Shown here: positions 10,157 to 61,733 of the stretch, in pieces
How the letters are laid out: the number at the start of each line of letters is the position of its first letter
How positions within the stretch are numbered: position 1 is the first letter of the stretch
Source of the DNA: Deltaproteobacteria bacterium
GTDB lineage: Bacteria; Desulfobacterota; Syntrophobacteria; BM002
DNA length: 62,109 bases
Direction of reading: 5' to 3'
NCBI GenBank assembly: GCA_020347625.1
Contig: CP070735.1
Location: 2,628,902-2,691,010 of the forward strand
Notes under the pieces: model-generated
What the model was told of the DNA's origin: nothing
The model's database searches: none
Seen by the model: only the letters and a program-made list of their open reading frames with translations
Made by a program: the position numbers and the translations under genes

Positions 10157-10320
10157 CATTTGGCATTTGGCATTTCGCGTTTCAAATCTCAAAACTGCAA
10201 TCAAAGAATACAGTAGCCAGTAGTCAAGGGCGAATTACTCCTGTTTGCTTTTCTCCTGAATTCTGACTCCTGACTCCTCACTCTATGCCCCATGCTCCAT
10301 GCCTTCTCACATCTCAAAAA
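10157..10320. repeat. composite heptamer-array element (copy A)
   Basis: CATTTGG x2.., GTAGCCA GTAGTCA, core AGGGCGAATTACTCCTGTTTGC, CTGACTC x2, CCATGCT CCATGCC. Confidence 0.85.
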
Positions 10321-20858: not shown

Positions 20859-21088
20859 TAGTCCGTAGTCCGTGGTCAGTGGTCCGTAGCCGGAAAGATT
20901 TCAAAGAAGGTGGACACAGTAAACTGGTATCTGAGCTGACAACACGATATGAGAAGGATCTATATTCTTGGTGTTGTGTCGGTCTGGCAGTAGAGGGAAG
21001 AACGTTGCTGATAGGGGGTAGGGTGCTTGTCCTCTTGTTACGAAAAAATAGATGCTAACGACGACGGACCACGGATCTCTGACAACCG
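20859..21088. repeat. heptamer-array hairpin element
   Basis: TAGTCCG TAGTCCG TGGTCAG TGGTCCG TAGCCGG on the left. CGACGAC GGACCAC GGATCTC on the right. An inner GACAACAC/GTGTTGTG hairpin is also present. Confidence 0.7.
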
Positions 21089-22971: not shown

Positions 22972-23040
22972 ACAGATTTCAGATTCTAGATTGTAGATTG
23001 CAGATTGCAGAATGGTGTTGTGAGAAGAGGGAAGATAATC
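22972..23040. repeat. heptamer array
   Basis: CAGATTT CAGATTC TAGATTG TAGATTG CAGATTG CAGAATG. Confidence 0.8.
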
Positions 23041-23575: not shown

Positions 23576-23700
23576 GCATGGGGCATAGGGCATGGGGCAT
23601 AGGGCAAATTCAGAAATCCTTCGCTCTAATCCCTTTGCTTTTTCGCTTTACGCTATGCGCTATGCGCTATGCGACCCTCAATCTGCAATCTGAAATCCCT
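23576..23700. repeat. heptamer-array hairpin element
   Basis: GCATGGG GCATAGG GCATGGG GCATAGG GCAAATTCAGAAATCCTTC...CTATGCG x3 ACCCTCA ATCTGCA ATCTGAA. Confidence 0.85.
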
Positions 23701-23779: not shown

Positions 23780-23855
23780 TGGAGCGGGAGACGGGTTTCG
23801 AACCCGCAACCCTCAGCTTGGAAGGCTGATGCTCTGCCAGTTGAGCTACTCCCGC
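23780..23855 (-). tRNA. tRNA-Gly (anticodon TCC)
   Basis: Reverse complement reads GCGGGAGTAGCTCAACTGGCAGAGC..TCAGC-CTTCCAA-GCTGA..GGTTCGAAACCCGTCTCCCGCTCCA. Confidence 0.9.
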
Positions 23856-24046: not shown

Positions 24047-24122
24047 GGCGGCATGGCCAAGTGGCTAAGGCAACGGTCTGCAAAACCGTTATTCCCCGGT
24101 TCGAATCCGGGTGCCGCCTCCA
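24047..24122 (+). tRNA. tRNA-Cys (anticodon GCA)
   Basis: GGCGGCATGGCCAAGTGGCTAAGGC-ACGGT-CTGCAAA-ACCGT..GGTTCGAATCCGGGTGCCGCCTCCA. Confidence 0.9.
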
Positions 24123-25547: not shown

Positions 25548-25945
25548 GGGGATTGTGGATTGCGGATTGAGGGTCGCAGAGAGCAGAGCGCATAGCGCAT
25601 AGCGACAAAGCATGGGGCATGGGGCATGGAGCATGGAGCATAGAGTAAGGAATAAGGAGTGAGGAGTCGGGAGTCAGAATCCAGGAGACAAGCAAACAAG
25701 AGTAATTCGCCCTTAACTACTGGCTACTGACTACTGACTACTGGATTCTTTGATGTAGGATGTGGGATTGCGGATTGCAGATTTCGGATTTGGGAATTCA
25801 GGGAGTATTGTACGTCATTATGTTCCGCTGTCAGTTTTTGTAAATGCCTGCGTGCACAGCGTTTTTTGAGCAGCCGGCTGCTAGCTGTCCGCTGCCTGCT
25901 GGGCAAAACGTCTTACTGCCTACTATCTACTGTCTACTGTCTACT
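25548..25945. repeat. composite heptamer-array element (copy B, about 400 nt)
   Basis: GGATTG units, GCATAGC x2, CATGGGG/CATGGAG x4, TAAGGAA.., core GAGTAATTCGCCC, GCTACTG ACTACTG x2, GGATTGC x2, later CTGCCTG../CTACTGT x2. Confidence 0.85.
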
Positions 25946-26399: not shown

Positions 26400-26528
26400 A
26401 TCTGCAATGTTAAATGCGAAATGAGAAATACTATCGCCGCGTCACCGCGTCACCGTATCAATACGCTACGCCTGGTGCACAGTTCCTAGTGCCTAGTGCC
26501 TAGTGCTTACTGCGCAAAGCATAGAGCG
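26400..26528. repeat. heptamer arrays (several families in series)
   Basis: ATCTGCA ATGTTAA ATGCGAA ATGAGAA; CGCGTCA CCGCGTC ACC; TCCTAGT GCCTAGT GCCTAGT GCTTACT. Confidence 0.8.
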
Positions 26529-27333: not shown

Positions 27334-27393
27334 CGTTCCCCCAAGAGTAGTCTAGGACAGCATACTACCAGGATTGATATGTTGACAAATGAT

Positions 27394-27462
27394 TTTGCAT
27401 TTCGGATTTGGGATTTGAGATGTGGGATGTGAGGTGTGCAATGCGAAATGAGAAATGCGAAA
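27394..27462. repeat. heptamer arrays
   Basis: TGCATTT CGGATTT GGGATTT GAGATGT GGGATGT GAGGTGT GCAATGC GAAATGA GAAATGC. Confidence 0.8.
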
Positions 27463-32165: not shown

Positions 32166-32166
32166 G

Positions 32167-32216
32167 GGCATAGAGCATAGGGCATAGGGCAAATTCAAAA
32201 TCCTTCACCCTATGCT
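32167..32216. repeat. short heptamer-array element
   Basis: GGCATAG AGCATAG GGCATAG GGCAAATTCAAAATCCTTC..CCTATGC. Shares the GCATAGGGCAAATTCA(G)AAATCCTTC unit with 23576..23700. Confidence 0.75.
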
Positions 32217-33407: not shown

Positions 33408-35105
33408 ATGATGGAAAATGGCTCTATGGCAAGCCGTCGTGTCCTGATCATCGATACTCATGAACCGGACGTCCAGGAGCTAAGACCGGTCTTGGACACT
33501 GCGGGCTACGAGGTGGTTGTGGCTAGGGACAGCCATGAGGCGCTAAAACAGGCCCATGAACTCCAACCTGAGGTTGTGCTCCTGGGGATTCAAAGTGCCA
33601 ATCTTAATGGACTTCAGATCCTTCGCCGTCTGAAGAAAAGAGGTACCACCACGGATATACCGGTCATTCTTCTATTGGAAAAATTCGATGAAGAGTACGT
33701 GGCCCAGGGGTTGCAGATGGGAGCTGAGGACTACCTGCTGAAGACCGCCGGCGAGGACTTTCTGCTGCGCAGGGTCGGGGTAATGGCCCGGATTCGTCAA
33801 AAAGAAAGGCTGCACCGCGAGGTGCTCGCAAGATACCACCAATACTTCGATGGTGAAGAATATGGGTTGTTTCTCAGCACGCGAGAGGGAAGATTCCTGG
33901 ATGTGAATCAGAATCTGGTCAAGATCTTGGGTTACGACAGCAGAGATGAACTTCTTGGTATAGATATCAAGAAAGACCTTTACTGGGATCTGAAAGATCG
34001 GGAGCGCTTTCAGCAGATGATTGAAAGCCAGGGCTTTGTCAAAAATTTCAAGGTGAACTTAAGAGGAAAGGACGGCCAGAAGGTTACCATCTTGCTTAGT
34101 GGCCAGGCGGTTCTTGATGAAAAAGGCAGTATCATCGGTTATGAGGGCTACAACATAGACATCTCCGACCAGCCAGAAGTTGCTGAGATTGAGCCAGGCC
34201 GTCCGGAGGCGAAGCGGTTCATCGGCAGGTTTTTGAAGCTTTTTGGGTCAAAGGTGCTTCCTTTCGGCGCTGATTTCTTCTCTCTCATGAAAATGACCGA
34301 ACTGATAGCTGAACGGTATGAAAAGGTTGAGCGGTTGGGATTGGGTAGTTTTGGAGAAGTGTGGAAAGTGCGTGATGTGGAAAGAGAAGGCCGCTCTCCT
34401 TACTACGTTGCCAAGATTCCTATGAGCAAGAAATTAAACACCAGGTTTCGTAAAGAAGCGGAAATTTGTCGTCGGTTAGATGACCACCCCAACGCAATCA
34501 AAATTGTTGATGTTGTAGAGCACCGAGGCAGGGTTGTGTTGCTGCAAGAATTTGTGGAGGGAGATTCGCTGAAAGAGCTCACACAGCGCTCTCTTGAAGA
34601 GACTGAAAAACAAAAAATCCTCTACCAGTTGATTGATATCGTTGCCCATGCCCACCGCCACCGAATAGTGCACCGGGACATCAAACCGGAGAACATCCTC
34701 ATTCGTCAGGATGGCATCCTGAAACTTTTAGATTTCGGCGTGGCCAAAGAGCTGAAAGATGAAGACATAAGCAGCACCATGGTGGGGTCCAGGCCATACA
34801 TGGCCCCAGAGCAGATCATGGGTGAGAGCCAGATAGCCAGCGATGTCTGGGCCCTGGGCGTAATTATCTATTTCCTTTACACTGAAATCCTGCCTTTCTT
34901 CGACGATAACGAGAAGGCATTGATGGATTTGATCCTCACCAGAGAACCGGAGCCCCCGCGAGATATCGAGCCCTCCATACCGGAGGAACTGGAGAGTATT
35001 ATCCTGAAATGTCTCAGGAAAGATCCAAAAGAACGCTTTGCTGACGCCGGTACCTTGAAGCAGGCACTGCTGGACAAATTTCCCGATTTCGGCAAAGCCA
35101 ATTAA
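33408..35105 (+). CDS. pseudo-receiver / PAS / Ser-Thr protein kinase fusion
   Basis: REC-like N-terminus with Gly at the phospho-acceptor position (VVLLGIQS). PAS region. Hanks kinase motifs GLGSFGEVW, VAKIP, HRDIKPEN, DFG and APE. Confidence 0.85.
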   Translation: MMENGSMASRRVLIIDTHEPDVQELRPVLDTAGYEVVVARDSHEALKQAHELQPEVVLLGIQSANLNGLQILRRLKKRGTTTDIPVILLLEKFDEEYVAQGLQMGAEDYLLKTAGEDFLLRRVGVMARIRQKERLHREVLARYHQYFDGEEYGLFLSTREGRFLDVNQNLVKILGYDSRDELLGIDIKKDLYWDLKDRERFQQMIESQGFVKNFKVNLRGKDGQKVTILLSGQAVLDEKGSIIGYEGYNIDISDQPEVAEIEPGRPEAKRFIGRFLKLFGSKVLPFGADFFSLMKMTELIAERYEKVERLGLGSFGEVWKVRDVEREGRSPYYVAKIPMSKKLNTRFRKEAEICRRLDDHPNAIKIVDVVEHRGRVVLLQEFVEGDSLKELTQRSLEETEKQKILYQLIDIVAHAHRHRIVHRDIKPENILIRQDGILKLLDFGVAKELKDEDISSTMVGSRPYMAPEQIMGESQIASDVWALGVIIYFLYTEILPFFDDNEKALMDLILTREPEPPRDIEPSIPEELESIILKCLRKDPKERFADAGTLKQALLDKFPDFGKAN

Positions 35106-35353
35106 ATCAATCACGCCTTTGCTGCATTACCGCTTCACACCACTGATGGTTAGTCCCCAAATTTTTGGCCCGGATTGTCTTAGTCTTGCCTAATGTCGCC
35201 CAGGTTAACTCCGGCGGTAAAATCTAAAGTCAGTGAAAAAAGCTGGCAGGGAAATTGCTTAACTTGACATTGGCGCCCAGCGACATTAACTGTCGTTTTC
35301 ACGGAGCGAGTGAAAAGAAAAAGTTTTTGCGGTGCCGGAAGGAGTCTGGGCCA

Positions 35354-36070
35354 ATGAAAAGAATAATCATTGCAACACTTGCATATATAGTGATGACCAC
35401 CTCTGTCGCCTGGGCACAGGATGCCATGTATTTCTATCAACGTGGTATGGAAAGCTCCCTGGCAAACAAGAGAATAGCGTACTTCACCAAGGCTTTGGAA
35501 AAAAACCCAAGTCTGGTGGAGGCTTACGAAAAAAGAGCCATTCACTATTATTTCCAGAGGCGCTACGCCAAGGCCATTCAGGATTACAGCAAAATCATTG
35601 AGTTGAAACCTGAAGGGGCTGAGGCCTATCTTATGCGGGGGTCGGCTCAGTTGAAAGCGGGAGAAGCAGAGCTGGCGATCAGCAATTTAAGCCGTGCCAT
35701 AGAGCTAGACCCAAGAGCTGCGAGTGCCTATGGCTATCGGGCAGAGGCCTACCGTCTCAAAGGAATGGCAGAAGAGGCAGTCCTTGACTCCACCAAGGCC
35801 ATCAGTCTGCGGGGTGATGAGCGGACAACTGCTAGAGCCTATGCAACCCGAGCCAAAGCCCACCAACAGCTTGGGCACGAGGAGCAATCCGATGCCGATT
35901 TCAATAAATCTGTTGAATTAGATCCCAGATACGTGCTGATCCGTTATTTAACTGGTACCAGTAGTTTGGAGGGTGTCCGTCGGATGGGTCTTATGGGCAT
36001 TATAACAATTTGTTTTATTGGAATTTTCCAGATTTCTCTGCGAGCACCAAAAAAAAAGGGAGAGCACTGA
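35354..36070 (+). CDS. TPR-repeat protein with signal peptide and C-terminal TM helix
   Basis: MKRIIIATLAYIVMTTSVAWA signal peptide. Repeated TPR units (A..Y..A..L.P). Internal ATG chosen. Confidence 0.75.
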   Translation: MKRIIIATLAYIVMTTSVAWAQDAMYFYQRGMESSLANKRIAYFTKALEKNPSLVEAYEKRAIHYYFQRRYAKAIQDYSKIIELKPEGAEAYLMRGSAQLKAGEAELAISNLSRAIELDPRAASAYGYRAEAYRLKGMAEEAVLDSTKAISLRGDERTTARAYATRAKAHQQLGHEEQSDADFNKSVELDPRYVLIRYLTGTSSLEGVRRMGLMGIITICFIGIFQISLRAPKKKGEH

Positions 36071-36140
36071 TGCCGCCGTTGCGATGTCCTTTGACAGTTA
36101 TCTTCGGACGGGGTAACTCCACCAGAGTGCGAGATTGTCT

Positions 36141-36160
36141 GGATTTGAAGCTTCAAATCC
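36141..36160. terminator. 20-bp perfect palindrome between convergent genes
   Basis: GGATTTGAAGCTTCAAATCC. There is no U-tract on either strand, so a terminator function is speculative. Confidence 0.3.
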
Positions 36161-36161
36161 A

Positions 36162-36713
36162 TCAAAAACCATACTGGGTACCGATATCACATACCATGAT
36201 TACCACGTCTGTGCTGCGTCCGTGAAGGTCTTTCACCAATCCCTCGATCACCGCTTTGCTGGAAAACCCAGCCTTCCTGAAGACGGAGAGGGCTTCCGGA
36301 AAATCGAGCGGCAGCTCAGCCCACAGCTTCTCAAGACCAAATTCCGCAGCCAATTCAACGATCTCGTGAATCAGTAAAGTGCCGAGACCCTTATGGTGGT
36401 ATTCCGGGTCCACCACCACACGAACGGTGCCGATGTGGTGCTTCCAGCCGTATGGTATGCGGTGCAAGGATACATCACCGACAATGCGGTCACCGTCTAG
36501 GGCGACGATAGGGAAAGCTCGACTGTAGTCGATATTCTTGGTCCAGGAATCTATGATTTGAACATCGGTTACATCGTGGCGTAGATAAAGGCGCAGGTCT
36601 TCAGGGAGCGATTGGAAAAAGGTGATAAGCGCCTCTTTATCCTCGGCCACCAGGGGCCGCAGGAGAACAATACTGCCGTCCTTTAGCTTGCATTCTTTCT
36701 TGTAATCTTTCAT
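36162..36713 (-). CDS. GNAT family N-acetyltransferase
   Basis: Acetyl-CoA motif HHKGLGTLL and a GNAT-typical layout. Confidence 0.8.
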   Translation of the reverse strand: MKDYKKECKLKDGSIVLLRPLVAEDKEALITFFQSLPEDLRLYLRHDVTDVQIIDSWTKNIDYSRAFPIVALDGDRIVGDVSLHRIPYGWKHHIGTVRVVVDPEYHHKGLGTLLIHEIVELAAEFGLEKLWAELPLDFPEALSVFRKAGFSSKAVIEGLVKDLHGRSTDVVIMVCDIGTQYGF

Positions 36714-36749
36714 CGTGGCTTCCCCCCTGGACTTATAAGCGTGTACACA

Positions 36750-37496
36750 TCATACACCAGTTTCCAGCCTTTCCGCTAGGTACTCAGGTAGCTTGGCATT
36801 GCGGATCTTTGCTTGGGCCGAGTGCAGATCATAGGAAACGGACTTAAACTGAATCGTCTCCGGTTCGTTGGAGAATACAAGATATGATGCTTTCCAATTG
36901 TGCTCCCGTGGTTGGCCCACACTACCCGGATTGATCAGGTACATCTGTTCTGGATCTAACAGGATATTTTCTTCGGGAATCTTCAGACTGGAGACTTTCC
37001 CTCGAACGTCACGCTGCCACACAGCACGTTTGTGTGTGTGGCCGAAAAATCCAATTCGCACTCCGACTGTTCGCTTGCGCATATAGTTGAATGCCTTTTT
37101 TGCCTGGAAGAGGTAGAAAAGGTAAGCATCAGGATTGCCGGGGGCACCGTGAAAGACGAGATAGCGATCCCAAATGACCCGGGTGTGCTCAAGTTTCTTA
37201 AGAAAGCGCTTGTGAATTGGAGCCAGTTTGTTGGCGGACCACTTCACCGCCTGGTAAGCCAAAATATTGAAGCCCTCGGCGTGTTTCATTTCCGTGGCAG
37301 CCCGGTCATGATTGCCTTGGATGCTGATGATTTGCCGACCCTGCACTAAATCAACGCACTCCACTGGGCTGGCATTGTAGCCAACCAAATCACCAAGATT
37401 GATAATTAGTGATATATCTTCCTGGTCGATGGCGTCAAGTACGGCCTTCAGGGCTTCGATATTTGAATGGATATCGGAAATAACGGCAACTTTCAT
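36750..37496 (-). CDS. calcineurin-like metallophosphoesterase
   Basis: ISDIHSN, LGDLVGY, GNHD and GHTH motifs. Confidence 0.85.
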   Translation of the reverse strand: MKVAVISDIHSNIEALKAVLDAIDQEDISLIINLGDLVGYNASPVECVDLVQGRQIISIQGNHDRAATEMKHAEGFNILAYQAVKWSANKLAPIHKRFLKKLEHTRVIWDRYLVFHGAPGNPDAYLFYLFQAKKAFNYMRKRTVGVRIGFFGHTHKRAVWQRDVRGKVSSLKIPEENILLDPEQMYLINPGSVGQPREHNWKASYLVFSNEPETIQFKSVSYDLHSAQAKIRNAKLPEYLAERLETGV

Positions 37497-37508
37497 GGAA
37501 ACTCGATA

Positions 37509-37616
37509 CTGGATGCTGATCGCTGGATGCTAGCCGCTCCAGGTGGGATATGCGATGTGCGATGTGAGATGGGGGATAGGCATGAATTCATCCCACATAT
37601 CAGATCACACATCCAT
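37509..37616. repeat. heptamer-array hairpin element (VWA-phosphoesterase gap)
   Basis: CTGGATG CTGATCG CTGGATG..TGCGATG TGCGATG TGAGATG GGGGATA, loop ggcatgaattca, then TCCCACA TATCAGA TCACACA. Confidence 0.8.
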
Positions 37617-37622
37617 AACTTG

Positions 37623-39203
37623 CTATTCTAGTGCTAGATAGTTTCGAACGCTGCCCAGTACGATCCGCGGGATATCATTCGTGTCGTTTACGCCGAATAC
37701 TGAGATGTTCTTGTTTTTCACCGATGCCTTGATGAACCTGAGGGCGCCGCTCTTCTTGCCAACATGGACTGCGGTCACTCTGTTTTTAAGTCGCGAAAAC
37801 CGCGAGACGGTTTGATCCAGATTGGTGATTTGCATGTCGGTGATCAGGAATATATCTGGGTCATCCTCCAGAGCGACACTGGTGACTTCGTCAACATCTA
37901 GAGCGGTCCCACCGCCAAAATATCTACAGAGGACCTTGTAGATGAGTGGTCGACTGCGGGTGAAAGATAGATATTCCCTGCCACCGGCTGGCGCGTCACT
38001 GAAGTTGTAGACCGCCACACTGGCATCATGGCGCAAATAGGCATCAGCCGCACAGCCACCGCCAAGAACCGCATACGATAACTGGCTGCGGGGATCCACC
38101 ATGCTGCCTGAAGAGTCGATAATCACAAGACAGTTGGGTGTTTTCTCTTTCTTGCCGTATATCAGACCTTCTCGCCTTTCCCAAATTTGGGTAATACCGG
38201 GAAGATACTTACCGAAACTTGACCATGGATCCAGGTCTTGGAATGGTTGACAGACTTCCCAGGGGCGATGGGAGTGGGGATGGAGGTGACCGGAATCCTT
38301 CAACGGCATTTTGCGAAGGGGCAGGGCGTAGTTTTCCGCCAATTTCATGTAATAGAGCCGATTGGCCTCAACAGGGCTTCCAGCGCCGTGTCCCATATCC
38401 TCGCCGCTTTTATCGCAAGGGGACTCGAGCTCGTTTTGCAAATACTCGAGAACCTCGGCGAACTCCTCGGGAGAATCCGCATCTCTGGCAAATTCGCGCA
38501 AGGCTTGTTCGATCTCTTCAGGAGCATACTGCTGGAAGCCATGCCTGCCCATTCGAGTCTGTTCATCCGGGGAACTGCTCTTTGTCTCTTCAAGCAGGGG
38601 GCGGATGCCGCGAATGAAACGCGTCAGACTAGCCAGCCACCTGCGCTTGTCCAGATAGGGAATGGCAACGAGTCTTTTCACTGCATCTTGGTTTCTCTTG
38701 CCACCCAAGTCTACTCCCCAAATCTCCTCATACAGGGAGAAGATGACCTCTTCCAATGGCGTGCGCGCGCCACTCCGATAAAGCTGAGGCAGGGAGCTTT
38801 GCCTTTCCCTAACCGCATGGGTGTCGGCTACAACGTCCATGAATAGGTCGGCGGCTGTACGGGCGAGGTCATTGTCGCCAAGGATTTTCTTGGCTCGGGC
38901 ATAGAGGCGCAGGTGAGTAGCGAGGTCCCAAGGGCAGCAGGTATAATGGCTAACTCCATGATCCAGAAGCGCTTCCAAGATGGTTTCCACTGGTAGCAAC
39001 TGCGCCATTGCCTCAATATAGTCAACATTGAGAATAATCTGTTTGTTACGGATTTCCATGCCGACCGGGGAACCGCTTTTATCAAACCTGGGCAGGGGTA
39101 GTTCAGGATACAGGTGCCGACGACGAACCTCCGGCCACAGTCGCTGCAGCATTTCCTCCAGGTCTTCAGATTGTTCAGGTCGTTCCCTGTTGTCGTTCAT
39201 CAA
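37623..39203 (-). CDS. VWA domain protein with uncharacterised N-terminal helical region
   Basis: C-terminal VWA domain with MIDAS motif VIIDSSGSM. The N-terminal ~330 aa are unassigned. Confidence 0.8.
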   Translation of the reverse strand: MMNDNRERPEQSEDLEEMLQRLWPEVRRRHLYPELPLPRFDKSGSPVGMEIRNKQIILNVDYIEAMAQLLPVETILEALLDHGVSHYTCCPWDLATHLRLYARAKKILGDNDLARTAADLFMDVVADTHAVRERQSSLPQLYRSGARTPLEEVIFSLYEEIWGVDLGGKRNQDAVKRLVAIPYLDKRRWLASLTRFIRGIRPLLEETKSSSPDEQTRMGRHGFQQYAPEEIEQALREFARDADSPEEFAEVLEYLQNELESPCDKSGEDMGHGAGSPVEANRLYYMKLAENYALPLRKMPLKDSGHLHPHSHRPWEVCQPFQDLDPWSSFGKYLPGITQIWERREGLIYGKKEKTPNCLVIIDSSGSMVDPRSQLSYAVLGGGCAADAYLRHDASVAVYNFSDAPAGGREYLSFTRSRPLIYKVLCRYFGGGTALDVDEVTSVALEDDPDIFLITDMQITNLDQTVSRFSRLKNRVTAVHVGKKSGALRFIKASVKNKNISVFGVNDTNDIPRIVLGSVRNYLALE

Positions 39204-39225
39204 GCACTCTATATTGAGACGGGTA

Positions 39226-39424
39226 GTTGTACGTTAAATGTTATTAGTTATACGTTATTAGTTATACGTTATACGTTATGAGTCATACCTTATTCGGTTT
39301 TCACTGCATCTGCAGCGGAAGTCAGTCGTCGAAGAATTCCCCGATCATCAGACTTACTTTTCCCGTTTAACTAATAACTAATAACTAATAACTAATAACT
39401 CTATCTTGCCTAGTGCCTAGTTTT
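39226..39424. repeat. heptamer-array hairpin element (GXGXG-VWA gap)
   Basis: GTTGTAC GTTAAAT GTTATTA GTTATAC GTTATTA GTTATAC GTTATAC GTTATGA on the left. TAACTAA x4-5 then CTAGTGC on the right. Confidence 0.85.
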
Positions 39425-39431
39425 CCTTGTG

Positions 39432-40106
39432 CTACGCCGGACCCACTGGCTCTCCAGCTTGATAGATCTGGCCGGAAGCAACTCTACCTAGGCCACGGAT
39501 GCGGCTTCCTACCCAGATTTCGCCGCCCTGCATCCATTCACCGGTGTTGCGACCGCAGTGTTTGTGAATTGAAATCTTGCCCTCAGTCATCCCAGCGCCG
39601 GCCCAGTCGCCTGTGGAGCCGGTTACAGTAACCTCACCACCCTGGAGAGCGGAGCCAGTGAAATTTCCCGCATCACCCTCAACGCGCAAGGATTTGCCGT
39701 AGGGGAGACGATAACCAAGAAAGTGTAGGGTCCGTTTCATCTCGCCGAGCCTGAGGACGATGGCGTCTTCATCTGCGTTATTGCAGAGTGCAGCAATGTA
39801 AATCCCGGCTGGTCCTGAAATGAGGTAAGGTATGTCAGTGCCGCTATCCAACACGTAACAGAAATCCTCGATGCTATGAGCGTCGTAGCTTACTTCCTTA
39901 ATTACCTCTGTGGCAGTCTTGTATGCTTCGATCACACGATTGTGCTCCACAAACCAGACAAGGCTCTTGAGCTCCTGCTCCACTAATTTGCCATAGCCTG
40001 CTGCTAGATCGCCCATGATCTGATCATGGGCCGCTGCCAGTCGATCCAAAGGCAGGTTTTTGGCCTTTGACAGAAAATCCTTAAAGTCTTCAAAAGGGTT
40101 AAACAC
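39432..40106 (-). CDS. GXGXG-repeat (GltB C-terminal/FwdC-like beta-helix) domain protein
   Basis: GDAGNFTGSALQGGEVTVTGSTGDWAGAGMTEGKISI..GGEIWVG. GTG start abuts the ATPase stop (TAA|GTG), with a GGAGGAG RBS. Confidence 0.7.
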   Translation of the reverse strand: MFNPFEDFKDFLSKAKNLPLDRLAAAHDQIMGDLAAGYGKLVEQELKSLVWFVEHNRVIEAYKTATEVIKEVSYDAHSIEDFCYVLDSGTDIPYLISGPAGIYIAALCNNADEDAIVLRLGEMKRTLHFLGYRLPYGKSLRVEGDAGNFTGSALQGGEVTVTGSTGDWAGAGMTEGKISIHKHCGRNTGEWMQGGEIWVGSRIRGLGRVASGQIYQAGEPVGPA

Positions 40107-41438
40107 TTACTCCTCCAGGTTCAGATCCTTTCGGATCTCTGCATAAATGGGGTGATCACCGGCCAGTGGCTCTAGAACTTCCCCTTGGAAGATGCGATAA
40201 GCGTTGGCCAGTGCCGCCTTGACGCGTTCAGCCTGCTCGCTGTAGCGCTGGTAAACTTCGCTTATGGCCTGACGGGCCAGGTGGATTTGTAGAGGGTCAT
40301 CGCGACGGTCTTTTTGCAGCAGAGAGAGGTGCGTGTCGGTCCACTGAGCCCGGTGGGCCAGACAGTAGGGGCCAACAGCACGGATCTCTTCAATTCCCAC
40401 TTCACCTGCATCCGTAAACCAGGCCAGCGCTTTCGCGTAGTTGGCCAGTGAGACAGGTAACCGGTTGGAAGCACAATTGCGCAGTCGGTGGCAGAGATAG
40501 CCTGTATAATGGCAGCCCTCCTCGCAAACCTCGCTGGAGCGTTTCTGACCGTGGCGCTCGCAAAAGGAAAGTTCGGCGAGCAGCATTCTTGCGTAGGCGT
40601 TGGCGTCCTGATCGAGACCTACGGCAGAAATGTGCTGGCGAACCTTTTCCCTGCTGGCAGAATCCAAAGTAGACAGTTGCAATGATTCTTGGAGGTAAGT
40701 ACCAAATGATTCAGAAATGGCCCCAAGTCGTGATTTTTTCTCCTCAGGCGGCAGTTTTTCTTTTAAGACCTCCTGGAGTTCTCGTTCCAGATCAGGATGC
40801 CGTAGGAGTTCTTCTTTTTCCTGTCGCTGGCTAATCAGGAAGGCATAACTGGGGCCAGGGTAGCGCGACTCAACCATCACATCAAAGCGGTCCAACAAAG
40901 GGGCAATGATGGTGTTAGTGCCCTGATCCTGGTAATTGGCAGTGGCGAAGAGACAGTACTCATCGTTCAGGATCATCTCGTTGAGATATTCCCAGTTGCC
41001 CCGGTCCACTCCATCCAGGATCATGCTCTGTTTGGTCTCCGGCAGTCTGTTGATCTCATCCACGATCTTTACGGGAAGCTGAACAAAGTGAGACCATACG
41101 ACCTCCTCCTGACCCGTATTCAGTTTGCCGAGATCAGGTCTGCCGATAATTTTCTCCTCAGTTTGTTCGGGATGGCCGGAAACCTCACTGGCCCAAACTG
41201 TACCTGCCGGTAGTTGGTATAGCAGGGAACCAACGTACTCGGCGGCGGTGGTTTTTCCTAGCCCGGGTTCACCAATGATCAAGGCCTTCCCACCCAGCAG
41301 AGCTGTCAGAAGACTAAAGAGAAGAGTGGAATTGAACTGTTCTCCCCCGACTTGAAGATCGGGACGGTTGAAGTAGAGATTTGATTGGATGAAATCGTAG
41401 AGCTTCCGGGCCGTATGCCGATATGTGCCGTTTTCCAT
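40107..41438 (-). CDS. MoxR-class AAA+ ATPase
   Basis: Walker A GEPGLGKT and Walker B KIVDEINR. The ATG at 41438 follows AAAGGAGA (alternative start 41462). Cys-rich C-terminal segment. Confidence 0.85.
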   Translation of the reverse strand: MENGTYRHTARKLYDFIQSNLYFNRPDLQVGGEQFNSTLLFSLLTALLGGKALIIGEPGLGKTTAAEYVGSLLYQLPAGTVWASEVSGHPEQTEEKIIGRPDLGKLNTGQEEVVWSHFVQLPVKIVDEINRLPETKQSMILDGVDRGNWEYLNEMILNDEYCLFATANYQDQGTNTIIAPLLDRFDVMVESRYPGPSYAFLISQRQEKEELLRHPDLERELQEVLKEKLPPEEKKSRLGAISESFGTYLQESLQLSTLDSASREKVRQHISAVGLDQDANAYARMLLAELSFCERHGQKRSSEVCEEGCHYTGYLCHRLRNCASNRLPVSLANYAKALAWFTDAGEVGIEEIRAVGPYCLAHRAQWTDTHLSLLQKDRRDDPLQIHLARQAISEVYQRYSEQAERVKAALANAYRIFQGEVLEPLAGDHPIYAEIRKDLNLEE

Positions 41439-41511
41439 AGCTTTAGTTCTCCTTTGCAGCATTTACTATATCCTCTCCACCGTATTAAGTAAATAACGCC
41501 ACAAAAATGAT

Positions 41512-41716
41512 AGGGCGCAAGGCGCACGGCACAAGACGTAAGGTGAAAGAAACCTATTAGGAGCTAGAATTCAGGAGCTAGGAGCGAGGGAGGAAATATT
41601 GGGATATCGGTGGTTCTCCTGAATTCTGGCTACTGTCTGCTGGATTCTACGAATTTGCCTTGCGCCTTGTGCCGTGTGCCTTGCGTCACGCACTCAGCGT
41701 GAGCGCTGAGTGCGAA
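41512..41716. repeat. heptamer-array hairpin element
   Basis: GGCGCAAGGCGCACGGCACAAG...AGGAGCTAGAATTCAGGAGCTAGGAGC..CTCCTGAATTCTGGCTACTG...CTTGCGCCTTGTGCCGTGTGCCTTGCG, plus CGCACTCAGCG/CGCTGAGTGCG. Confidence 0.8.
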
Positions 41717-41808
41717 ATGTTAATTGACAGGGGTGGCGGGATTGCAGTACTTATGACAGGTAGCAGACCTTTTTTGGACTCCAGTTTAAATCAGTTAAGG
41801 GGGGGTAG

Positions 41809-42234
41809 ATGAAGATTCGAGATATTATGGTGACTGAGGTGGTTACACTGCACGTCGATGAAGAATTATCGCTGGCCAGTGACATCATGAATCTGGCACG
41901 AATTCGGCATCTACCAATCGTGGAGGGCGACCGTCTGGTGGGGATTATCAGCCAGCGCGACTTGTTTAAGGCCTCTTTGGCATCGGTGATGGGATATGAT
42001 TACGCTGAAACTCGCGACCACCTCAAGTCAGTATCCATCAGGGAAGCCATGGTAGAAAATGTGATTACGGTAACCCCGGACGCAGGCATCCAAGAGGCGG
42101 GAAAGATCATGTTGGATAAAAAGATTGGCTGTCTGCCGGTGGTACAAGAAAATCGTTTAGTAGGCATGGTAACCGAAACAGACATCCTCCGTTGCTTTCT
42201 CCTACATTGGGAGGACTGTACCAGAGGTGAATAA
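41809..42234 (+). CDS. CBS domain pair protein
   Basis: Two CBS repeats (MVTEVVTL...; MVENVITV...GCLPVV). GGGGGG RBS. Confidence 0.85.
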   Translation: MKIRDIMVTEVVTLHVDEELSLASDIMNLARIRHLPIVEGDRLVGIISQRDLFKASLASVMGYDYAETRDHLKSVSIREAMVENVITVTPDAGIQEAGKIMLDKKIGCLPVVQENRLVGMVTETDILRCFLLHWEDCTRGE

Positions 42235-42291
42235 AGATCATTGGGGCGAAAGAAAGGTTTAATCTAACCGTTTTTACCAAGAAACCGCGAT

Positions 42292-42648
42292 CTATGACTT
42301 GGGTAGTTTTGCCTTAAAGTCCTCCAAGGCCATTTGTTCGAGATACTCTCTGTCGTCGGCGGATATCTCGGTAAATTTTACACCGATGATTCGGGGCCGA
42401 TTGGACTGGTCTTTACTGTCTGACCATATAACTATGGCTGCCACCTCCAAGGGTTCCCTCTCGGGAGCCTTTATTGTCATTTGTACCGGTTCATCGAGAT
42501 CCACGTGCTCTGTGCAGCGAATATGAGCTCCTCCAGCACTAATATCTCTCGTTTTCCCTTCCACAAATCCTTTTGAGGTCTCCAATTTGACAGGCCACTC
42601 TACTCTAAGTCTGAAGGACAGACGCTTTTGATCGCCAACCTCAATCAT
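42292..42648 (-). CDS. PilZ domain protein
   Basis: RLSFR and DISAGG motifs. Paralogous to 22000..22281 and 23075..23437. Confidence 0.78.
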   Translation of the reverse strand: MIEVGDQKRLSFRLRVEWPVKLETSKGFVEGKTRDISAGGAHIRCTEHVDLDEPVQMTIKAPEREPLEVAAIVIWSDSKDQSNRPRIIGVKFTEISADDREYLEQMALEDFKAKLPKS

Positions 42649-42767
42649 CTACACCCCCATTCTGCTTTCACATGAGCAAACTTACCTTTCTGAGCAAATT
42701 CTACAAAAAGCATGCCAAAAGCCGCGTGAGAAAAACCGTAAGATAAGCCTGGATCTGACAAGTCAGG

Positions 42768-42855
42768 TGGTGCCTGGGGCGAGACTCGAACTCGCACGGG
42801 ACATGGTCCCAAGGGATTTTAAGTCCCTTATGTCTACCAATTCCATCACCCAGGC
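42768..42855 (-). tRNA. tRNA-Leu (anticodon TAA)
   Basis: Reverse complement reads GCCTGGGTGATGGAATTGGTAGACAT-AAGGGA-CTTAAAA-TCCCTT, a long variable arm, then GGTTCGAGTCTCGCCCCAGGCACCA. Confidence 0.88.
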
Positions 42856-42915
42856 ACAAGGGCAGATAGGTCAAGGCAAAATCTAGATGGTTTCCCTGAA
42901 TATGTCAATTGTTAG

Positions 42916-42960
42916 GTGAATCCGCAATCCGGTATCCGCAATCCAAAATCGATTAATAAT
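42916..42960. repeat. heptamer array
   Basis: GTGAATC CGCAATC CGGTATC CGCAATC CAAAATC. Confidence 0.75.
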
Positions 42961-44095
42961 CTCGCCCGAGTAAGTGCAGATTGCCGATATGGACGTTCTT
43001 CAGGCCGGCGCTTTCGGCGACCTCCTTGCAGCGGAGCGCATGGCTGCGGGAGGTGGTTGGAAGGTCTTGCAGATGAAAATGAGGATAAAAACCGAGAAGA
43101 CTATAGGGGATCTCTGGGTTCAACTGGGCGATGTAGCGCGCAATTCCTGCGACTTCCACCTCGTCCACATAGCCCGGCACCAAGAGGGTGCTGGCAATCA
43201 GAAAAGGTGGCACCGGCCTTTGCTGGACGAACTCGCTCAACACTTTGAAGTTATCTAGAGTTTTTCGATTTGTCACCCCACAAAGGGCATGGTGAACACT
43301 TTCATTCCATGCCTTGAGATCAAATTTTATTAATCCACCCGAGTCAAATGATAACCTTGCCATCATACTCAGGAAGGGCTCTTGCACGGCCCCATTGGTC
43401 TCCCAGCAAATCCTGAGGACGCGCTCAGATGCCATTTGCAGAGCCAGTTTTGAGGCCTTAAGGGCATGGAGAATTTGCGGAGTCGGATCTCCACCGAAAT
43501 AGCAAATGCAGCTGGTGTTAAGCTTCACCGCTCCAGCCAACTGCTTTGCAGTGACACGTTGAGTTGAGCGAGTTCGATCTTTGAACTGGTGATTTTGACA
43601 ATAAAGGCAATTAAAGGAACAGGCATTATAGAAGACAGCCAGATTGTTATGGCCATGTTCAGGGCCGTCGGAAACAGCATACTGTGGATAGCCACAGCCC
43701 GTACCACCCGGACAAACAAAATCACCCACACAGTTTGTGGGAAGGGGGTCGTAATAATAGGAGAGATTTCCCTCGTGCGGCCGGCCGCCCTTTATCTTAC
43801 CGTCTTCCGCTCGGCGGAGGCCGCAGAAGCCAACACCGCCCTCGGGGATTTTGCATAGATGAACGCAAAGCTTACAGGCGACCCCAGACTCAGCCCGGGG
43901 CGGGCTCTCCGGTAGACCGTAGGGTTTTCGGGTACGAGCGTGAACGCTTTTGATTTCAGGCCAAACATCCTCAAAGTGGGACCGGATACAATTTGCACAG
44001 AAGCCTATGACATCGGAAATGGCTGGACTACTCTTGCCGCATTGTCGGCATTTGCCCGAGGGAATTCTAACTAGCACCTTTCCAATACCGGTCAT
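42953..44095 (-). CDS. radical SAM enzyme, AmmeMemoRadiSam-type
   Basis: CSFNCLYC (CX3CX2C) motif. N-terminal CKLCVHLCKIPEGGVGFCGLR resembles the AmmeMemoRadiSam family. Confidence 0.7.
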   Translation of the reverse strand: MTGIGKVLVRIPSGKCRQCGKSSPAISDVIGFCANCIRSHFEDVWPEIKSVHARTRKPYGLPESPPRAESGVACKLCVHLCKIPEGGVGFCGLRRAEDGKIKGGRPHEGNLSYYYDPLPTNCVGDFVCPGGTGCGYPQYAVSDGPEHGHNNLAVFYNACSFNCLYCQNHQFKDRTRSTQRVTAKQLAGAVKLNTSCICYFGGDPTPQILHALKASKLALQMASERVLRICWETNGAVQEPFLSMMARLSFDSGGLIKFDLKAWNESVHHALCGVTNRKTLDNFKVLSEFVQQRPVPPFLIASTLLVPGYVDEVEVAGIARYIAQLNPEIPYSLLGFYPHFHLQDLPTTSRSHALRCKEVAESAGLKNVHIGNLHLLGRDY

Positions 44096-44130
44096 TAGCC
44101 ACTCTCAGAAAAAAGATTTATACATATTTT

Positions 44131-44348
44131 GATGGAGTAATGGAGTGACTAGAAATTCCAAATAACAAATCACAAATCCCAAACAAATCACAATGACCAA
44201 AATTCGAAATTCCAAACCTGTTTTTTGTTTTGGTCATTTGGTATTGGAATTTGAGATTTGTTTGTAATTTGGTGCTTGGAGTTTGGGATTTCATTAACTC
44301 CAACATTCCATCATTCCAGTATTCCACTATTCCAGTACTGCAGTACTC
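44131..44348. repeat. about 220-nt nested heptamer hairpin element (copy S)
   Basis: GGAGT-type outer units. Inner arms CAAATAA CAAATCA CAAATCC CAAACAA... facing ...TTTGAGA TTTGTTT GTAATTT. Positions 44227-44292 are the exact reverse complement of 61575-61640. Confidence 0.9.
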
Positions 44349-44352
44349 TATT

Positions 44353-44868
44353 TTACCTTTGTATCTTACTCAGGAAAAGATCCAGGGCCAAATCCCGGGT
44401 GTTTTCGGTAATAGGTATCACCAAAACGTCATGACGTTTCTTTATACCCTGAATAAAGTGGTCGCCTCTCATGGCAATAGAACCGATAACATGGTGTTCT
44501 GAATCCAGTACCTTTATCAAGATTTTCTTGAAAAGTGATGAGAAGCACTCCATTTTGCCTATTTCGTCAACAACGACTATCTCCCCGCTCTTGGCTGGTT
44601 GCATTGATGGCACAGCGACCTCGTCGAGATCGTGGAGATTCACCCCGTATTTACCCACTCTGAATTTACTTTTAATATTTTGATGAGCCAAAACGCCTGT
44701 TTTTCCATCCAGAGTAGTTATTGAAAACCCTACCCGCAGGCCCTTATGCCTTATCTCCCTGGTAAAAAAACCGGTTGCCGGTTTACCTATTTTCTGGATA
44801 ACCTTTTCGATCAGAGTGGATTTTCCGGATCGGGGCGGGCCGGTGACAAGAATGTTTGTGGCTGCCAC
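44353..44868 (-). CDS. THEP1/NTPase_1-type nucleoside triphosphatase
   Basis: ILVTGPPRSGKSTLIEKV P-loop, VVDEIGKME, about 170 aa. Confidence 0.75.
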   Translation of the reverse strand: MAATNILVTGPPRSGKSTLIEKVIQKIGKPATGFFTREIRHKGLRVGFSITTLDGKTGVLAHQNIKSKFRVGKYGVNLHDLDEVAVPSMQPAKSGEIVVVDEIGKMECFSSLFKKILIKVLDSEHHVIGSIAMRGDHFIQGIKKRHDVLVIPITENTRDLALDLFLSKIQR

Positions 44869-45038
44869 ATATACTCCTGGTGTTGGTTTGCCTCGGCTAT
44901 AAAGATATTAAGGCAAAAAGATAGGGTGAAAGTCAATCTTGGAATGATTAGGTTAGTAAAAGTAGGGGAGGGATGGGAGGATCGAGGCCATTCCTTCCCT
45001 CGTTCAATCGCGGCTGGAAGCCGCTCCAAGACCAATGA

Positions 45039-45128
45039 AACTAGGCACTAGGAACTATGCACTAGGCACTAAAATGAGCAACCAAATAAGATTTTCTGTG
45101 CTTAGTGCTTAGTGTTTAGTGTCCAGTA
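45039..45128. repeat. heptamer-array hairpin element
   Basis: AACTAGG CACTAGG AACTATG CACTAGG CACTAAA, a loop, then TGCTTAG TGCTTAG TGTTTAG TGTCCAG. Confidence 0.85.
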
Positions 45129-45146
45129 AATCAGAGGAGATTTACC

Positions 45147-45599
45147 ATGAAAACAAAATGTCTAGCATTAATTTTGACGCTCGCCATGGTTGCCTTCGGG
45201 GCAGGAAAGGCTTCGGCTCATTGTGAAATTCCCTGTGGCATCTATGACGATCAGTTACGAACGGATCTAATCGCTGAGCATGCCACCACAATTGAAAAGT
45301 CGATGAAAAAAATTGTGGAGTTGGGCAAGCAAAATCCCGTAAACTACAATCAGCTTGTTCGGTGGGTTTCAAACAAAGAGAAACACGCCAATGAAGTACA
45401 GCATATTGTCACCCAATACTTCATGACCCAGCGTATCAAACCAGATGCCAAGAAATACTCGGAAAAATTGACCGTTTTGCATCAAATGTTGATTGCAGCT
45501 ATGAAGTGTAAGCAGACTGCTGATCTCTCCAACGTGAATACCCTTCGGTCACTGCTGAAGGAATTTGAAATTCTCTATTTCGATCATACACACAAGTAA
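45147..45599 (+). CDS. sodN: nickel superoxide dismutase with Sec-type signal peptide
   Basis: Ni-hook HCEIPCGIYD immediately after MKTKCLALILTLAMVAFGAGKASA. GAGGAG RBS. Confidence 0.85.
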   Translation: MKTKCLALILTLAMVAFGAGKASAHCEIPCGIYDDQLRTDLIAEHATTIEKSMKKIVELGKQNPVNYNQLVRWVSNKEKHANEVQHIVTQYFMTQRIKPDAKKYSEKLTVLHQMLIAAMKCKQTADLSNVNTLRSLLKEFEILYFDHTHK

Positions 45600-45670
45600 T
45601 GGGAGAGAGGTGGTGTGGGCCGATTCGGCCCATATGTCTCTGACACAGGGGTAGAACGGGAAAGCTCTTG

Positions 45671-46996
45671 ATGGACCTGAAATTGGAAAATCTTCTGGCT
45701 GACAAGGAAAATCTGGAACGGATCCTCGACAACCTTATGGAAGGGATCATCGCGCACGACAAGGAAAGGCGCATCCTTTTCTTTAATCGGGCCGCAGAGA
45801 GAATAACCGGATACGATAGGATAGACATCCTGGGAAGGGACTGTCACGAGGCATTCGGGGCACCATTTTGTGGTGGGCGCTGCTCATTTTGCGGAGAACC
45901 GCCCAATTCCTGGACCCGGGTTGATTATCCCCTCAATATTGTCAGCAAGCAGGGCGATCCGAGACGGATCGAGATGTCGGTAACAGGGATGACCGATGAA
46001 ACCGGTTGCTTTGTGGGGGTGCTGGCCGCCTTCCGGGACGTGACCGATCTGATTGGCTTACAGATCAGGCTCGGTCAAGTTACCAGTTTTGCTGGAATAA
46101 TCGGGCAGGATCACAAGATGCTCCAAATCTTTGAGCAGATAAGGGAGTTGGCCACCAACGACTATCCGGTGAATATCACCGGTGAGACAGGAACGGGCAA
46201 AGAGCTTGTTGCCGCAGCCATCCACAATGAGAGTCAGAGAGGTGGGGGCCCCTTCGTCCCGATTAACTGCGGCGCCTTGCCTGAGGGCGTACTCGAGAGC
46301 GAGCTTTTCGGGCATGTGAAAGGAGCCTTCTCCGGGGCAATCCGGGACAAGAAGGGCAGGTTTGAGCTGGCAGATGAGGGCACCATTTTTCTTGACGAGG
46401 TGACAGATCTCCCCAAAAGCATGCAGGTAAAGCTCCTGCGTGTTCTGCAAGAGGGAACATTCGAGAGGGTGGGAGGCGAGGAAACTATCACGGTAAACGT
46501 GAGGGTGATCAGTGCCACCAACCGTGACCTGAAGCGCGAGGTGGATAGAAATAACTTTCGAGAAGACCTTTACTACCGGCTTAACGTAGTGCCCATTGAG
46601 CTGCCGCCACTTCGGGATCGAAAAAACGACATTCCTCTTTTGGTTGAACATTTTTTAAAGGCGGCCAGGGAAAAGGGGCAGAAAGCAACGGGACTATCCA
46701 AGAAAGCTCTGGCCGTAATGCTAGACTATCCATGGCCCGGAAATGTTCGCGAGTTACAAAATGCCATTCATTACGGACTGGTCAAGTGCAAGGGTAAGGT
46801 AATACAAATAGAAGACTTGCCCCTGGAACTGAGAGAAAGAAATTCTCGGCGCGGTCCGGTTAGAAAGCTTGATGAGCAGGCGGTAAGGGCTGCCCTGGAG
46901 TTGACGGGCGGCAACAAGGCCAAAGCTGCCAGACATTTGGGTGTCGGTCGCGCCACCCTCTATCGCTTCCTGGCGGATTTTCCGGATGTCTCATGA
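45671..46996 (+). CDS. sigma-54-dependent transcriptional activator with Cys-rich PAS sensor domain
   Basis: PAS domain containing CHEAFGAPFCGGRCSFC. AAA+ motifs GETGTGKE and GAFSGA. C-terminal Fis-type HTH. Confidence 0.9.
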   Translation: MDLKLENLLADKENLERILDNLMEGIIAHDKERRILFFNRAAERITGYDRIDILGRDCHEAFGAPFCGGRCSFCGEPPNSWTRVDYPLNIVSKQGDPRRIEMSVTGMTDETGCFVGVLAAFRDVTDLIGLQIRLGQVTSFAGIIGQDHKMLQIFEQIRELATNDYPVNITGETGTGKELVAAAIHNESQRGGGPFVPINCGALPEGVLESELFGHVKGAFSGAIRDKKGRFELADEGTIFLDEVTDLPKSMQVKLLRVLQEGTFERVGGEETITVNVRVISATNRDLKREVDRNNFREDLYYRLNVVPIELPPLRDRKNDIPLLVEHFLKAAREKGQKATGLSKKALAVMLDYPWPGNVRELQNAIHYGLVKCKGKVIQIEDLPLELRERNSRRGPVRKLDEQAVRAALELTGGNKAKAARHLGVGRATLYRFLADFPDVS

Positions 46997-52561: not shown

Positions 52562-52715
52562 TTGTAGATTTAAGATTGTAAATTTAAGATTTAAGATTGG
52601 GGAATCCTTCTTTGGTGCTTTTCTTTCTGATAGCTATCTGAAGTAACCTCAGCATTAGGTTACAGGTAACAAATTACCTAAATCCGCAATCCGCAATCTG
52701 TAATCCGGAATCGAG
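52561..52715. repeat. heptamer-array hairpin element
   Basis: TGTAGAT TTAAGAT TGTAAAT TTAAGAT TTAAGAT on the left. CCTAAAT CCGCAAT CCGCAAT CTGTAAT CCGGAAT on the right. Confidence 0.8.
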
Positions 52716-61537: not shown

Positions 61538-61733
61538 GAGAGTACTACTGAGTGGCTGGAGTGTTGGAGTCTGTGAAATCCCAAACTCCAAGCACCAAAT
61601 TACAAACAAATCTCAAATTCCAATACCAAATGACCAAAACAGTTTTGGAATTTTGAATTTTGGTCATTGTGATTTGTTTGATATTTGATATTTGAGATTT
61701 GGAATTTCTATTATTTCACTAATCCGTTACTCC
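61538..61733. repeat. about 200-nt nested heptamer hairpin element (copy T, inverted relative to S)
   Basis: 61575-61640 is the exact reverse complement of 44227-44292. The other arm and the outer GGAGT/ACTCC units are also collinear with copy S. Confidence 0.9.

Follow-up and report, generated by a model that had tools for sequence, protein, structure and literature searches.

A stretch of 62,109 nucleotides from a Deltaproteobacteria bacterium of the Syntrophobacteria (GenBank assembly GCA_020347625.1, contig CP070735.1, positions 2,628,902–2,691,010), referred to below as the window, contains a triad of genes encoding an AAA+ ATPase, a protein with a GXGXG right-handed beta-helix, and a protein that joins a putative zincin-derived N-terminal domain (N-domain) to a C-terminal von Willebrand factor A (VWA) domain. 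The triad is a conserved, translationally coupled unit. By analogy with known pairs of AAA+ and VWA proteins, it could form a three-protein ATP-driven remodelling machine, a chaperone that assembles or matures its client without proteolysis and uses the beta-helix protein as a lineage-specific adaptor, and the chances that this reading is correct are judged to be about even. The initial annotation described five co-directional genes on the minus strand and quoted characteristic motifs for them, and all of these open reading frames (ORFs) and motifs were recovered (Table 1). It also treated the five genes as one system, while only the first three form the conserved unit, and the calcineurin-like phosphoesterase and GNAT acetyltransferase genes that follow are separable from it. 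The domain labels given to the five products all hold, although profile support is weak for the three core proteins.

A homolog search with the beta-helix protein, together with a scan of GTDB at one genome per species, yielded 70 loci, all of them in metagenome-assembled genomes (MAGs) of Thermodesulfobacteriota (Syntrophobacterales, Desulfarculaceae, Desulfobacteraceae, and Syntrophaceae) or of Tectomicrobia/Candidatus Entotheonella. When the neighbourhood survey suggested by the initial annotation was performed, by tblastn with the five window proteins, every locus sufficiently covered by its contig, 63 out of 63, showed the genes for the ATPase, the beta-helix protein and the VWA protein with unchanged order and orientation; the seven incomplete loci are all cut by contig ends. 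This arrangement is far beyond chance. Identities to the window proteins drop in step, from about 85/85/80% for the ATPase, beta-helix and VWA proteins, respectively, to 55/42/45%. Two loci picked via the VWA protein likewise carry a gene for a 232–247-aa product between the ATPase and VWA genes. The flanks of the triad differ among lineages, and clustering of the flanking ORFs of 72 non-redundant loci revealed no conserved neighbour or client gene besides the triad itself. Neither the Pfam, NCBIfam, PADLOC and PHROGs libraries above their thresholds nor the solved structures name the triad or the N-domain, NCBIfam holds no name for the triad proteins or their distant relatives, and literature searches found no description of the triad or the N-domain. 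The original view that this combination of AAA+, GXGXG and VWA proteins cannot be assigned to a described system is thus borne out by the libraries and papers searched. A mobile element was also considered and set aside, since the phage and plasmid collections contained no tblastn match to the VWA protein.

Several loci deviate in detail. At two of them (L028, 4677–5336; L068, 5410–5937) the ATPase was matched partially, over 220 and 176 aa, though the contig continues; these partial genes may reflect frameshifts, assembly errors or decay. An apparent fusion of the beta-helix and VWA ORFs in L074 was rejected as a frame artefact of a GC-rich contig. A Lon protease gene lies directly after the triad in L001 (10353–12713) and L176 (5768–8119). 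These two loci probably represent one lineage, since they share downstream synteny (CTP_transf_3, IclR), and Lon is no general neighbour of the triad.

The first two genes of the triad are contiguous. As first described, the stop codon of the ATPase gene abuts the start codon of the beta-helix gene (TAA/GTG) with GGAGGAG in front, and the junction sequence GGAGGAGTAAGTG shows both features. In relatives the two genes overlap by 4 nt, which together with the junction in the window indicates that translational coupling is conserved. The spacer between the beta-helix and VWA genes is longer in the window than in most other lineages, where it is much shorter and often comprises tens of bases. Two tandem-repeat arrays with a period of 7 nt are located in this spacer (39225–39287 and 39368–39400).

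The ATPase narrowly passed the Pfam gathering scores of AAA_5 (26.2 bits; gathering score 22) and AAA_lid_2 (24.9 bits; gathering score 22.7), and remained below the cut-off of the MoxR model AAA_3 (19.8 bits; cut-off 27). More than 900 homologs were found, mostly of 443–444 aa, and Met9 (position 41438) is the likelier start of the ATPase, giving 443 aa, because this is the length of its relatives. Identity is 55–65% across phyla (Tectomicrobia versus Syntrophobacterales). The Walker A and Walker B motifs and the DRFD motif with the arginine finger R192 are invariant in 20 relatives (alignment A4); as far as its sequence indicates, the protein is an AAA+ module with intact catalytic motifs. 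The same alignment shows six invariant residues, C301, C313, C317, H318, C324, and C330, in an insert of the lid region. This Cys5-His cluster is kept in Entotheonella (L064), in the divergent triad L093 and in the two-gene relative L089, and is lost in the two-gene relatives L087 and L090. Such a pattern of presence and absence fits a structural metal site, for which the insert is a candidate, and metal binding is probable. Outside its own family, the best sequence matches of the ATPase, although weak, are ChlI and the Cob-chelatase. Sequence searches of the PDB with the protein and with profile A4 returned only weak ChlI and MoxR-like (2r44) matches, the nearest solved protein being ChlI (E 0.005), and profile scans against PADLOC and PHROGs returned generic ATPase matches only.

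The second gene encodes a protein whose C-terminal half matches Pfam GXGXG (PF01493; 26.4 bits, E 5.9e-6) below the gathering score of 32.5, and the FwdC model TIGR03122 (75 bits, E 5.5e-21) below the cut-off of 130.65. FwdC chains are also matched among the PDB sequences (E 1.2e-12). On these matches the C-terminal half is homologous to FwdC, yet the protein is not an equivalog. It shares the GXGXG beta-helix with FwdC/FmdC and the C-terminal domain of GltB, and differs from them in having a shorter helix, which is fused to a family-specific N-terminal half, and in scoring below every curated cut-off. None of the genes for FwdA/B/D, GltB or N-methylglutamate synthase was found in the flanks of the 63 triad loci. 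Full-length relatives are 39–97% identical, the closest one being encoded in a Syntrophobacterales MAG (L008; 97%), and are always encoded between the ATPase and VWA genes. The N-terminal half matches no Pfam or NCBIfam family. It carries an NPFxDF peptide, in which N3, F5, and F8 are invariant (alignment A2), while D7 is not kept in Entotheonella. A role of this peptide as an acidic ligand of the metal ion-dependent adhesion site (MIDAS) of the VWA protein was considered and dropped, the aspartate being replaced by alanine in Entotheonella and the whole peptide missing in the short version of L093. Profile scans against PADLOC and PHROGs gave no match for either the beta-helix protein or the VWA protein.

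The third protein has no Pfam or NCBIfam match of its own, and VWA_2 was detected in 27 of 33 relatives by the Pfam scan. Its reading frame probably starts at an ATG one codon past the listed TTG. The protein has more than 900 homologs, and the architecture of the family members examined is uniform, with 501–556 aa and no extra domains. The AlphaFold2 model of the full protein comprises a confident N-domain (residues 8–260), a low-confidence region (261–352) and the VWA domain. Foldseek searches with this model returned VWA folds as the sole matches, namely TFIIH p44/Ssl1, Rpn10 and vWF-A domains (E 2.5e-4, probability 1.0), and at the level of the predicted structure the C-terminal VWA fold is confirmed. 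The MIDAS site is complete (D363, S365, S367, T433, and D456). In the superfamily alignment of 31 sequences (A7), every sequence shares four of these residues, and the conservation of T433 is at least 90%. One distant member weakly matched ViaA with its VWA domain (E 0.001). The linker between the two domains is nearly invariant (YYMKLAENY...HPHSH.PWE...DPW.SFGK..PGITQ.W) although its predicted local distance difference test (pLDDT) score is below 50, and Y285, S329, and P335 are conserved superfamily-wide. This linker is a candidate partner-binding segment and may serve in docking.

About 330 N-terminal residues of this protein had been left unassigned in the initial annotation; they are now partly assigned, residues 1–260 belonging to a superfamily that carries the HExxH motif. 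Modelled alone by AlphaFold2, the N-domain is mostly helical with a three-stranded sheet (pLDDT 84.5, predicted template modelling score 0.84). Searches of the PDB with its sequence and profile A3 found no match. An exhaustive HMMER search with the profile of the N-domain gave at least 290 clusters at 50% identity, a lower bound for the size of the superfamily, and most of these comprise proteins of 450–630 aa with the same layout of N-domain plus VWA domain. HExxH is present in 88 of the 114 motif-bearing representatives, the full motif reading HExxH[YFH]xx[C]P. In alignment A7, both histidines (H82 and H86) are invariant, and conservation is at least 90% for E83 and for the downstream D123, a candidate third metal ligand. 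The clade of the window, which has the motif LDH[GA]xxH, carries Gly or Ala in place of the glutamate in every member examined; the window protein itself reads HGVSH, with G83. H82, H86, C90, and H97 are invariant within this clade, as is D81 next to H82. The HMMER search and the alignments establish the motif and the superfamily membership of the N-domain, for which the zincin fold is a putative assignment. It is concluded that the N-domain is probably zincin-derived and that in the window's clade both histidines and D123 are kept as putative metal ligands while the catalytic base is lost.

Matches of the N-domain to known zincins are weak. Peptidase_M48 was weakly matched over the motif by one distant member, and Foldseek against BFVD returned weak matches that include phage VWFA-domain proteins, a zincin protease and a SprT-like protein. 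No peptidase model was significant among the family members scanned. The combination of DUF2201_N and DUF2201 is an architecture of a putative metallopeptidase plus a VWA-like domain. The respective models (PF13203 and PF09967) matched none of 33 family members (E up to 1) and none of 10 distant members (E up to 0.01). The superfamily resembles the M48, SprT and DUF2201_N zincins in its motif HExxH[YF]xx[C]P and the downstream aspartate, and differs from these in the outcome of the peptidase model searches and in the missing glutamate of the window's clade. To our knowledge, a zincin-derived N-domain has not been reported for the VWA proteins of CbbQ/CbbO, NorQ/NorD, CoxD/CoxE or RavA/ViaA.

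Distant members of the superfamily with an HExxH motif (L087, L089, and L090) are encoded in pairs of AAA+ and zincin-VWA genes without a beta-helix gene. Their ATPases (441–462 aa) are 32–38% identical to that of the window, and their HExxH-VWA proteins (593–628 aa) contain long low-complexity linkers rich in acidic residues or glutamine. The flanks of L089 and L090 are archaeal-looking (UPF0113, DUF7343, DUF87). HExxH is kept in a divergent bacterial triad (L093/L094), whose identity to the window is 49% for the ATPase and 35% for the VWA protein. The middle protein of this triad is shortened to 174–179 aa (L093, 4125–4664), being smaller by roughly two coils and devoid of the N-terminal NPF peptide, and matches the beta-helix family with an hhalign probability of 98.5%. 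The two-gene HExxH pairs and the triad that keeps HExxH together indicate that the beta-helix subunit is a lineage-specific addition to an older AAA+/zincin-VWA pair and that the loss of the glutamate is later than this addition.

The two genes downstream of the triad have clear family matches: the phosphoesterase to Pfam Metallophos_2 (E 2.7e-21) and the GNAT protein to Acetyltransf_1 (E 1e-13). Weak matches were also seen to Ser/Thr phosphatases and YfcE for the former, and to Pat, RimI and ArsN for the latter. Within the window's clade (at least 72% identity), 11 of the 12 loci that extend far enough have the pair after the triad, whereas the clades with 39–58% identity, represented by about 47 loci, lack it there throughout; in CP070692, a methyltransferase gene takes its place. 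A metagenome scan with the phosphoesterase alignment found 80 relatives at 35–50% identity, none of them beside a triad. The three closest phosphoesterase relatives (L096, L098, and L099) have a GNAT gene immediately downstream and no triad. Since the pair is missing at most triad loci outside the window's clade and occurs without the triad, it is a self-standing two-gene module, sometimes located beside the triad and outside the core. It is accordingly unlikely that the five genes form one pathway, in which the phosphoesterase and the acetyltransferase would modify the client of the remodelling machine or have a regulatory role. Such a pathway would agree with the regular presence of the pair in the window's clade and with a locus of a second lineage, L095, where the pair directly follows the VWA gene with a 1-nt gap and the identities to the window proteins are 38% for the VWA protein, 51% for the phosphoesterase and 55% for the GNAT protein.

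Other readings concern the core itself. The triad could be an ATP-dependent metalloprotease similar to a split FtsH: substrates would be caught by the MIDAS site, unfolded by the AAA+ protein and then cut by the zincin head, in the window's clade via a substitute residue. FtsH (M41) likewise pairs an AAA+ ATPase functionally with an HExxH domain; the zincin-VWA genes always have an AAA+ gene next to them, and most motif-bearing representatives have the canonical HExxH with a near-invariant downstream aspartate; in the triad superfamily, however, the ATPase and the zincin are separate polypeptides linked through the VWA domain. The invariant D81 beside H82 could be proposed as the substitute residue in the window's clade, but it probably faces away from position 83 across the helix turn, and it predates the loss of the glutamate, since LDHE variants exist. 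With Gly or Ala in every member of this clade examined and no significant peptidase model, proteolysis is quite unlikely. A role in conflict or defence, with the beta-helix protein as a sensor or effector, was suggested by the initial comparison with vWA-MoxR systems. Ternary systems of this type, in which the genes for a MoxR-like ATPase and a vWA protein lie together with that of a conserved third protein, are known, their third components being VMAP, iSTAND, FtsH or a beta-propeller and their vWA proteins carrying variable effector domains (Kaur et al., 2020; PMC7159879). Some triad flanks do contain mobile or toxin-antitoxin genes (HepT/NTP_transf_2 in L007, a transposase in L087). However, defence genes are not recurrent among the flank neighbours, the third component of the triad is none of those listed but a GXGXG beta-helix, PADLOC names no triad protein as a defence component, and the triad has one uniform architecture with very high sequence conservation and no effector fusions or variable effector domains. 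Together with the lack of VWA protein matches in the phage and plasmid collections, this makes a defence function highly improbable, and the comparison is not supported.

The analogy to class I chelatases drawn in the initial annotation fares no better. In a machine of this type, a tetrapyrrole or other cofactor would receive its metal and the beta-helix protein would serve as the substrate-binding subunit. Like BchI/BchD/BchH and CobS/CobT/CobN, the triad has three components, including AAA+ and VWA subunits, ChlI and the Cob-chelatase give the best, though weak, sequence matches of its ATPase outside the family, and the conserved His/Cys clusters could handle metal. Nevertheless, the ATPase scores 21 bits against TIGR02030 (ChlI; cut-off 466.95) and 21.6 bits against TIGR02442 (Cob-chelatase; cut-off 779.45), the N-terminus of the VWA protein, the counterpart of the D/T subunit, is zincin-like rather than AAA-like, and neither a large H/N subunit nor any tetrapyrrole gene occurs in the triad flanks examined, with no BchH/CobN-like gene near the 63 loci. 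The suggestion that the GXGXG protein replaces the large substrate-binding subunit is not supported, since the older two-gene relatives lack this protein, which is a lineage-specific addition. A chelatase is therefore the least probable of the functions considered here. Close parallels to the triad are the MoxR-type pairs CbbQ/CbbO, NorQ/NorD, CoxD/CoxE and RavA/ViaA, which likewise combine adjacent genes for an AAA+ protein (AAA_5 plus AAA_lid_2) and a C-terminal-VWA protein with a complete MIDAS; like the triad, these pairs are also chromosomal and conserved, with a single architecture. The triad differs from them in its ATPase, which is below the AAA_3 threshold and carries the Cys5-His lid insert, in the intercalated and translationally coupled beta-helix subunit, and in the absence of a client gene (Rubisco, nitric oxide reductase or CO dehydrogenase) nearby.

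In the remodelling machine proposed for the triad, the MIDAS site and the pseudo-peptidase head would hold a client protein, by analogy with CbbQ/CbbO, NorQ/NorD, CoxD/CoxE and Rea1, the linker would fasten the VWA protein to the ring of the ATPase, and the client would be remodelled or released through ATP hydrolysis. With its general base lost, the head is most likely to bind a metal or a peptide and not to cleave. The beta-helix protein could be an adaptor or scaffold, and the whole machine may be a maturation chaperone for a housekeeping target, possibly a metal centre. A housekeeping rather than a conflict role fits the high conservation and the empty phage, plasmid and PADLOC searches. 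Several points weigh against this proposal. The mechanism is argued by analogy. The zincin assignment is inferred from the motif, the superfamily membership and very weak fold matches, and Foldseek of the N-domain against the PDB found no fold match (best E 0.96). Loss of the glutamate does not strictly exclude catalysis through another residue, and the HExxH of the L093 triad makes the beta-helix subunit compatible with a possibly active peptidase. In addition, the phosphoesterase-GNAT pair recurs at L095, a locus of a second and distant lineage, which hints that it is functionally tied to the triad.

A wider reading is offered more tentatively, as possible rather than probable. The triad and its two-gene relatives would together constitute an ancient, previously unrecognised class of archaeal and bacterial AAA+ machines whose VWA-MIDAS adaptor has a zincin head built in, comparable to a "split FtsH with a MIDAS hook." In the branch found in Thermodesulfobacteriota and Tectomicrobia, the peptidase would have been inactivated and a beta-helix subunit of the GltB/FwdC type recruited, the outcome being a dedicated non-proteolytic maturation factor for a housekeeping complex, possibly a metal-containing one.

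Table 1. Genes, domains and motifs of the triad, the adjacent module and the neighbouring genes (window coordinates).
Feature	Position	Strand	Remarks
AAA+ ATPase, MoxR/ChlI-like type	40107–41462	minus	451-aa ORF
Walker A, GEPGLGKT	41250–41273	minus	translation
Walker B, KIVDEINR	41046–41069	minus	translation
Cys-rich segment of the ATPase, CERHGQKRSSEVCEEGCHYTGYLCHRLRNC, Cys5-His insert of the lid region	40473–40562	minus	translation
GXGXG beta-helix protein	39432–40106	minus	224 aa, GTG start
N-terminal half of the beta-helix protein, family-specific, with NPFxDF peptide	39723–40106	minus	no family match
GXGXG right-handed beta-helix half, residues ~129–224	39432–39722	minus	Pfam, NCBIfam, PDB
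Spacer between beta-helix and VWA genes, 228 bp	39204–39431		two heptamer tandem-repeat arrays
Pseudo-zincin-VWA protein	37623–39203	minus	526 aa
Zincin-like N-terminal domain, residues 1–260	38424–39203	minus	AlphaFold2 model, superfamily search
HExxH-equivalent site, HGVSHYTCCPWDLATH, Glu83 to Gly	38913–38960	minus	translation, alignments
Linker, residues 261–352	38148–38423	minus	conserved sequence, pLDDT <50
VWA domain with complete MIDAS site	37623–38147	minus	Foldseek, alignment
MIDAS motif, DSSGSM	38100–38117	minus	translation
Calcineurin-like metallophosphoesterase, YfcE/Metallophos_2 type	36750–37496	minus	248 aa; neighbouring module, outside the core
GNAT acetyltransferase	36162–36713	minus	183 aa; partner of the phosphoesterase, outside the core
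REC-PAS-Ser/Thr kinase hybrid	33408–35105	plus	neighbour gene
CBS-pair protein	41809–42234	plus	neighbour gene
PilZ protein	42292–42648	minus	neighbour gene
Radical-SAM enzyme	42953–44095	minus	neighbour gene
NTPase_1 (THEP1-type) protein	44353–44868	minus	neighbour gene
Sigma-54 activator	45668–46996	plus	neighbour gene

The neighbouring genes in Table 1 (33408–46996) are unrelated chromosomal genes, none of which is conserved beside the triad in other genomes, as evidenced by flank clustering. A tRNA-Leu(taa) gene (42768–42855, minus strand) is located just upstream of the cluster, between the PilZ and radical-SAM genes, and further tRNA genes of the window lie at 1128–1203, 1368–1441, 23780–23855 and 24047–24122. 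An Rfam scan of positions 35000–43000 detected tRNA only, and the promoter and terminator scans remained at background level.

The heptamer arrays of the spacer are part of a wider set of period-7 tandem repeats in the window, with 3.6–9 copies and a different heptamer in each array. The others are located at 1498–1528, 1629–1661, 1839–1872, 10253–10283, 20859–20889, 22973–23011, 23576–23606, 25609–25645, 25716–25743, 25914–25945, 26470–26506, 27391–27428, 32166–32191, 45040–45071, 52566–52598, 52681–52712 and 61677–61701. All arrays whose position was checked lie between ORFs. They recall the heptamer STRR repeats of cyanobacteria.

Pairs of AAA+ and VWA proteins recur in the assembly and repair of Rubisco, nitric oxide reductase, CO dehydrogenase and chelatases. 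The triad delineates an unnamed branch of this kind and provides three protein families ready for curation. The putatively zincin-derived head of its VWA subunit belongs to a superfamily that has no Pfam or NCBIfam model. The bacterial form with the strongest conservation has gained the beta-helix subunit and lost the catalytic residue, and it offers a clear case of the conversion of a peptidase into a pseudo-enzyme inside an ATPase machine, while the middle protein places the GXGXG beta-helix in a new partner context. The practical value of these findings is limited until a client or a phenotype is in hand. The carriers of the triad are uncultured members of the Syntrophobacterales, Desulfarculaceae, Desulfobacteraceae and Entotheonella, and the client of the machine could expose an unrecognised maturation step in the metabolism of anaerobes.

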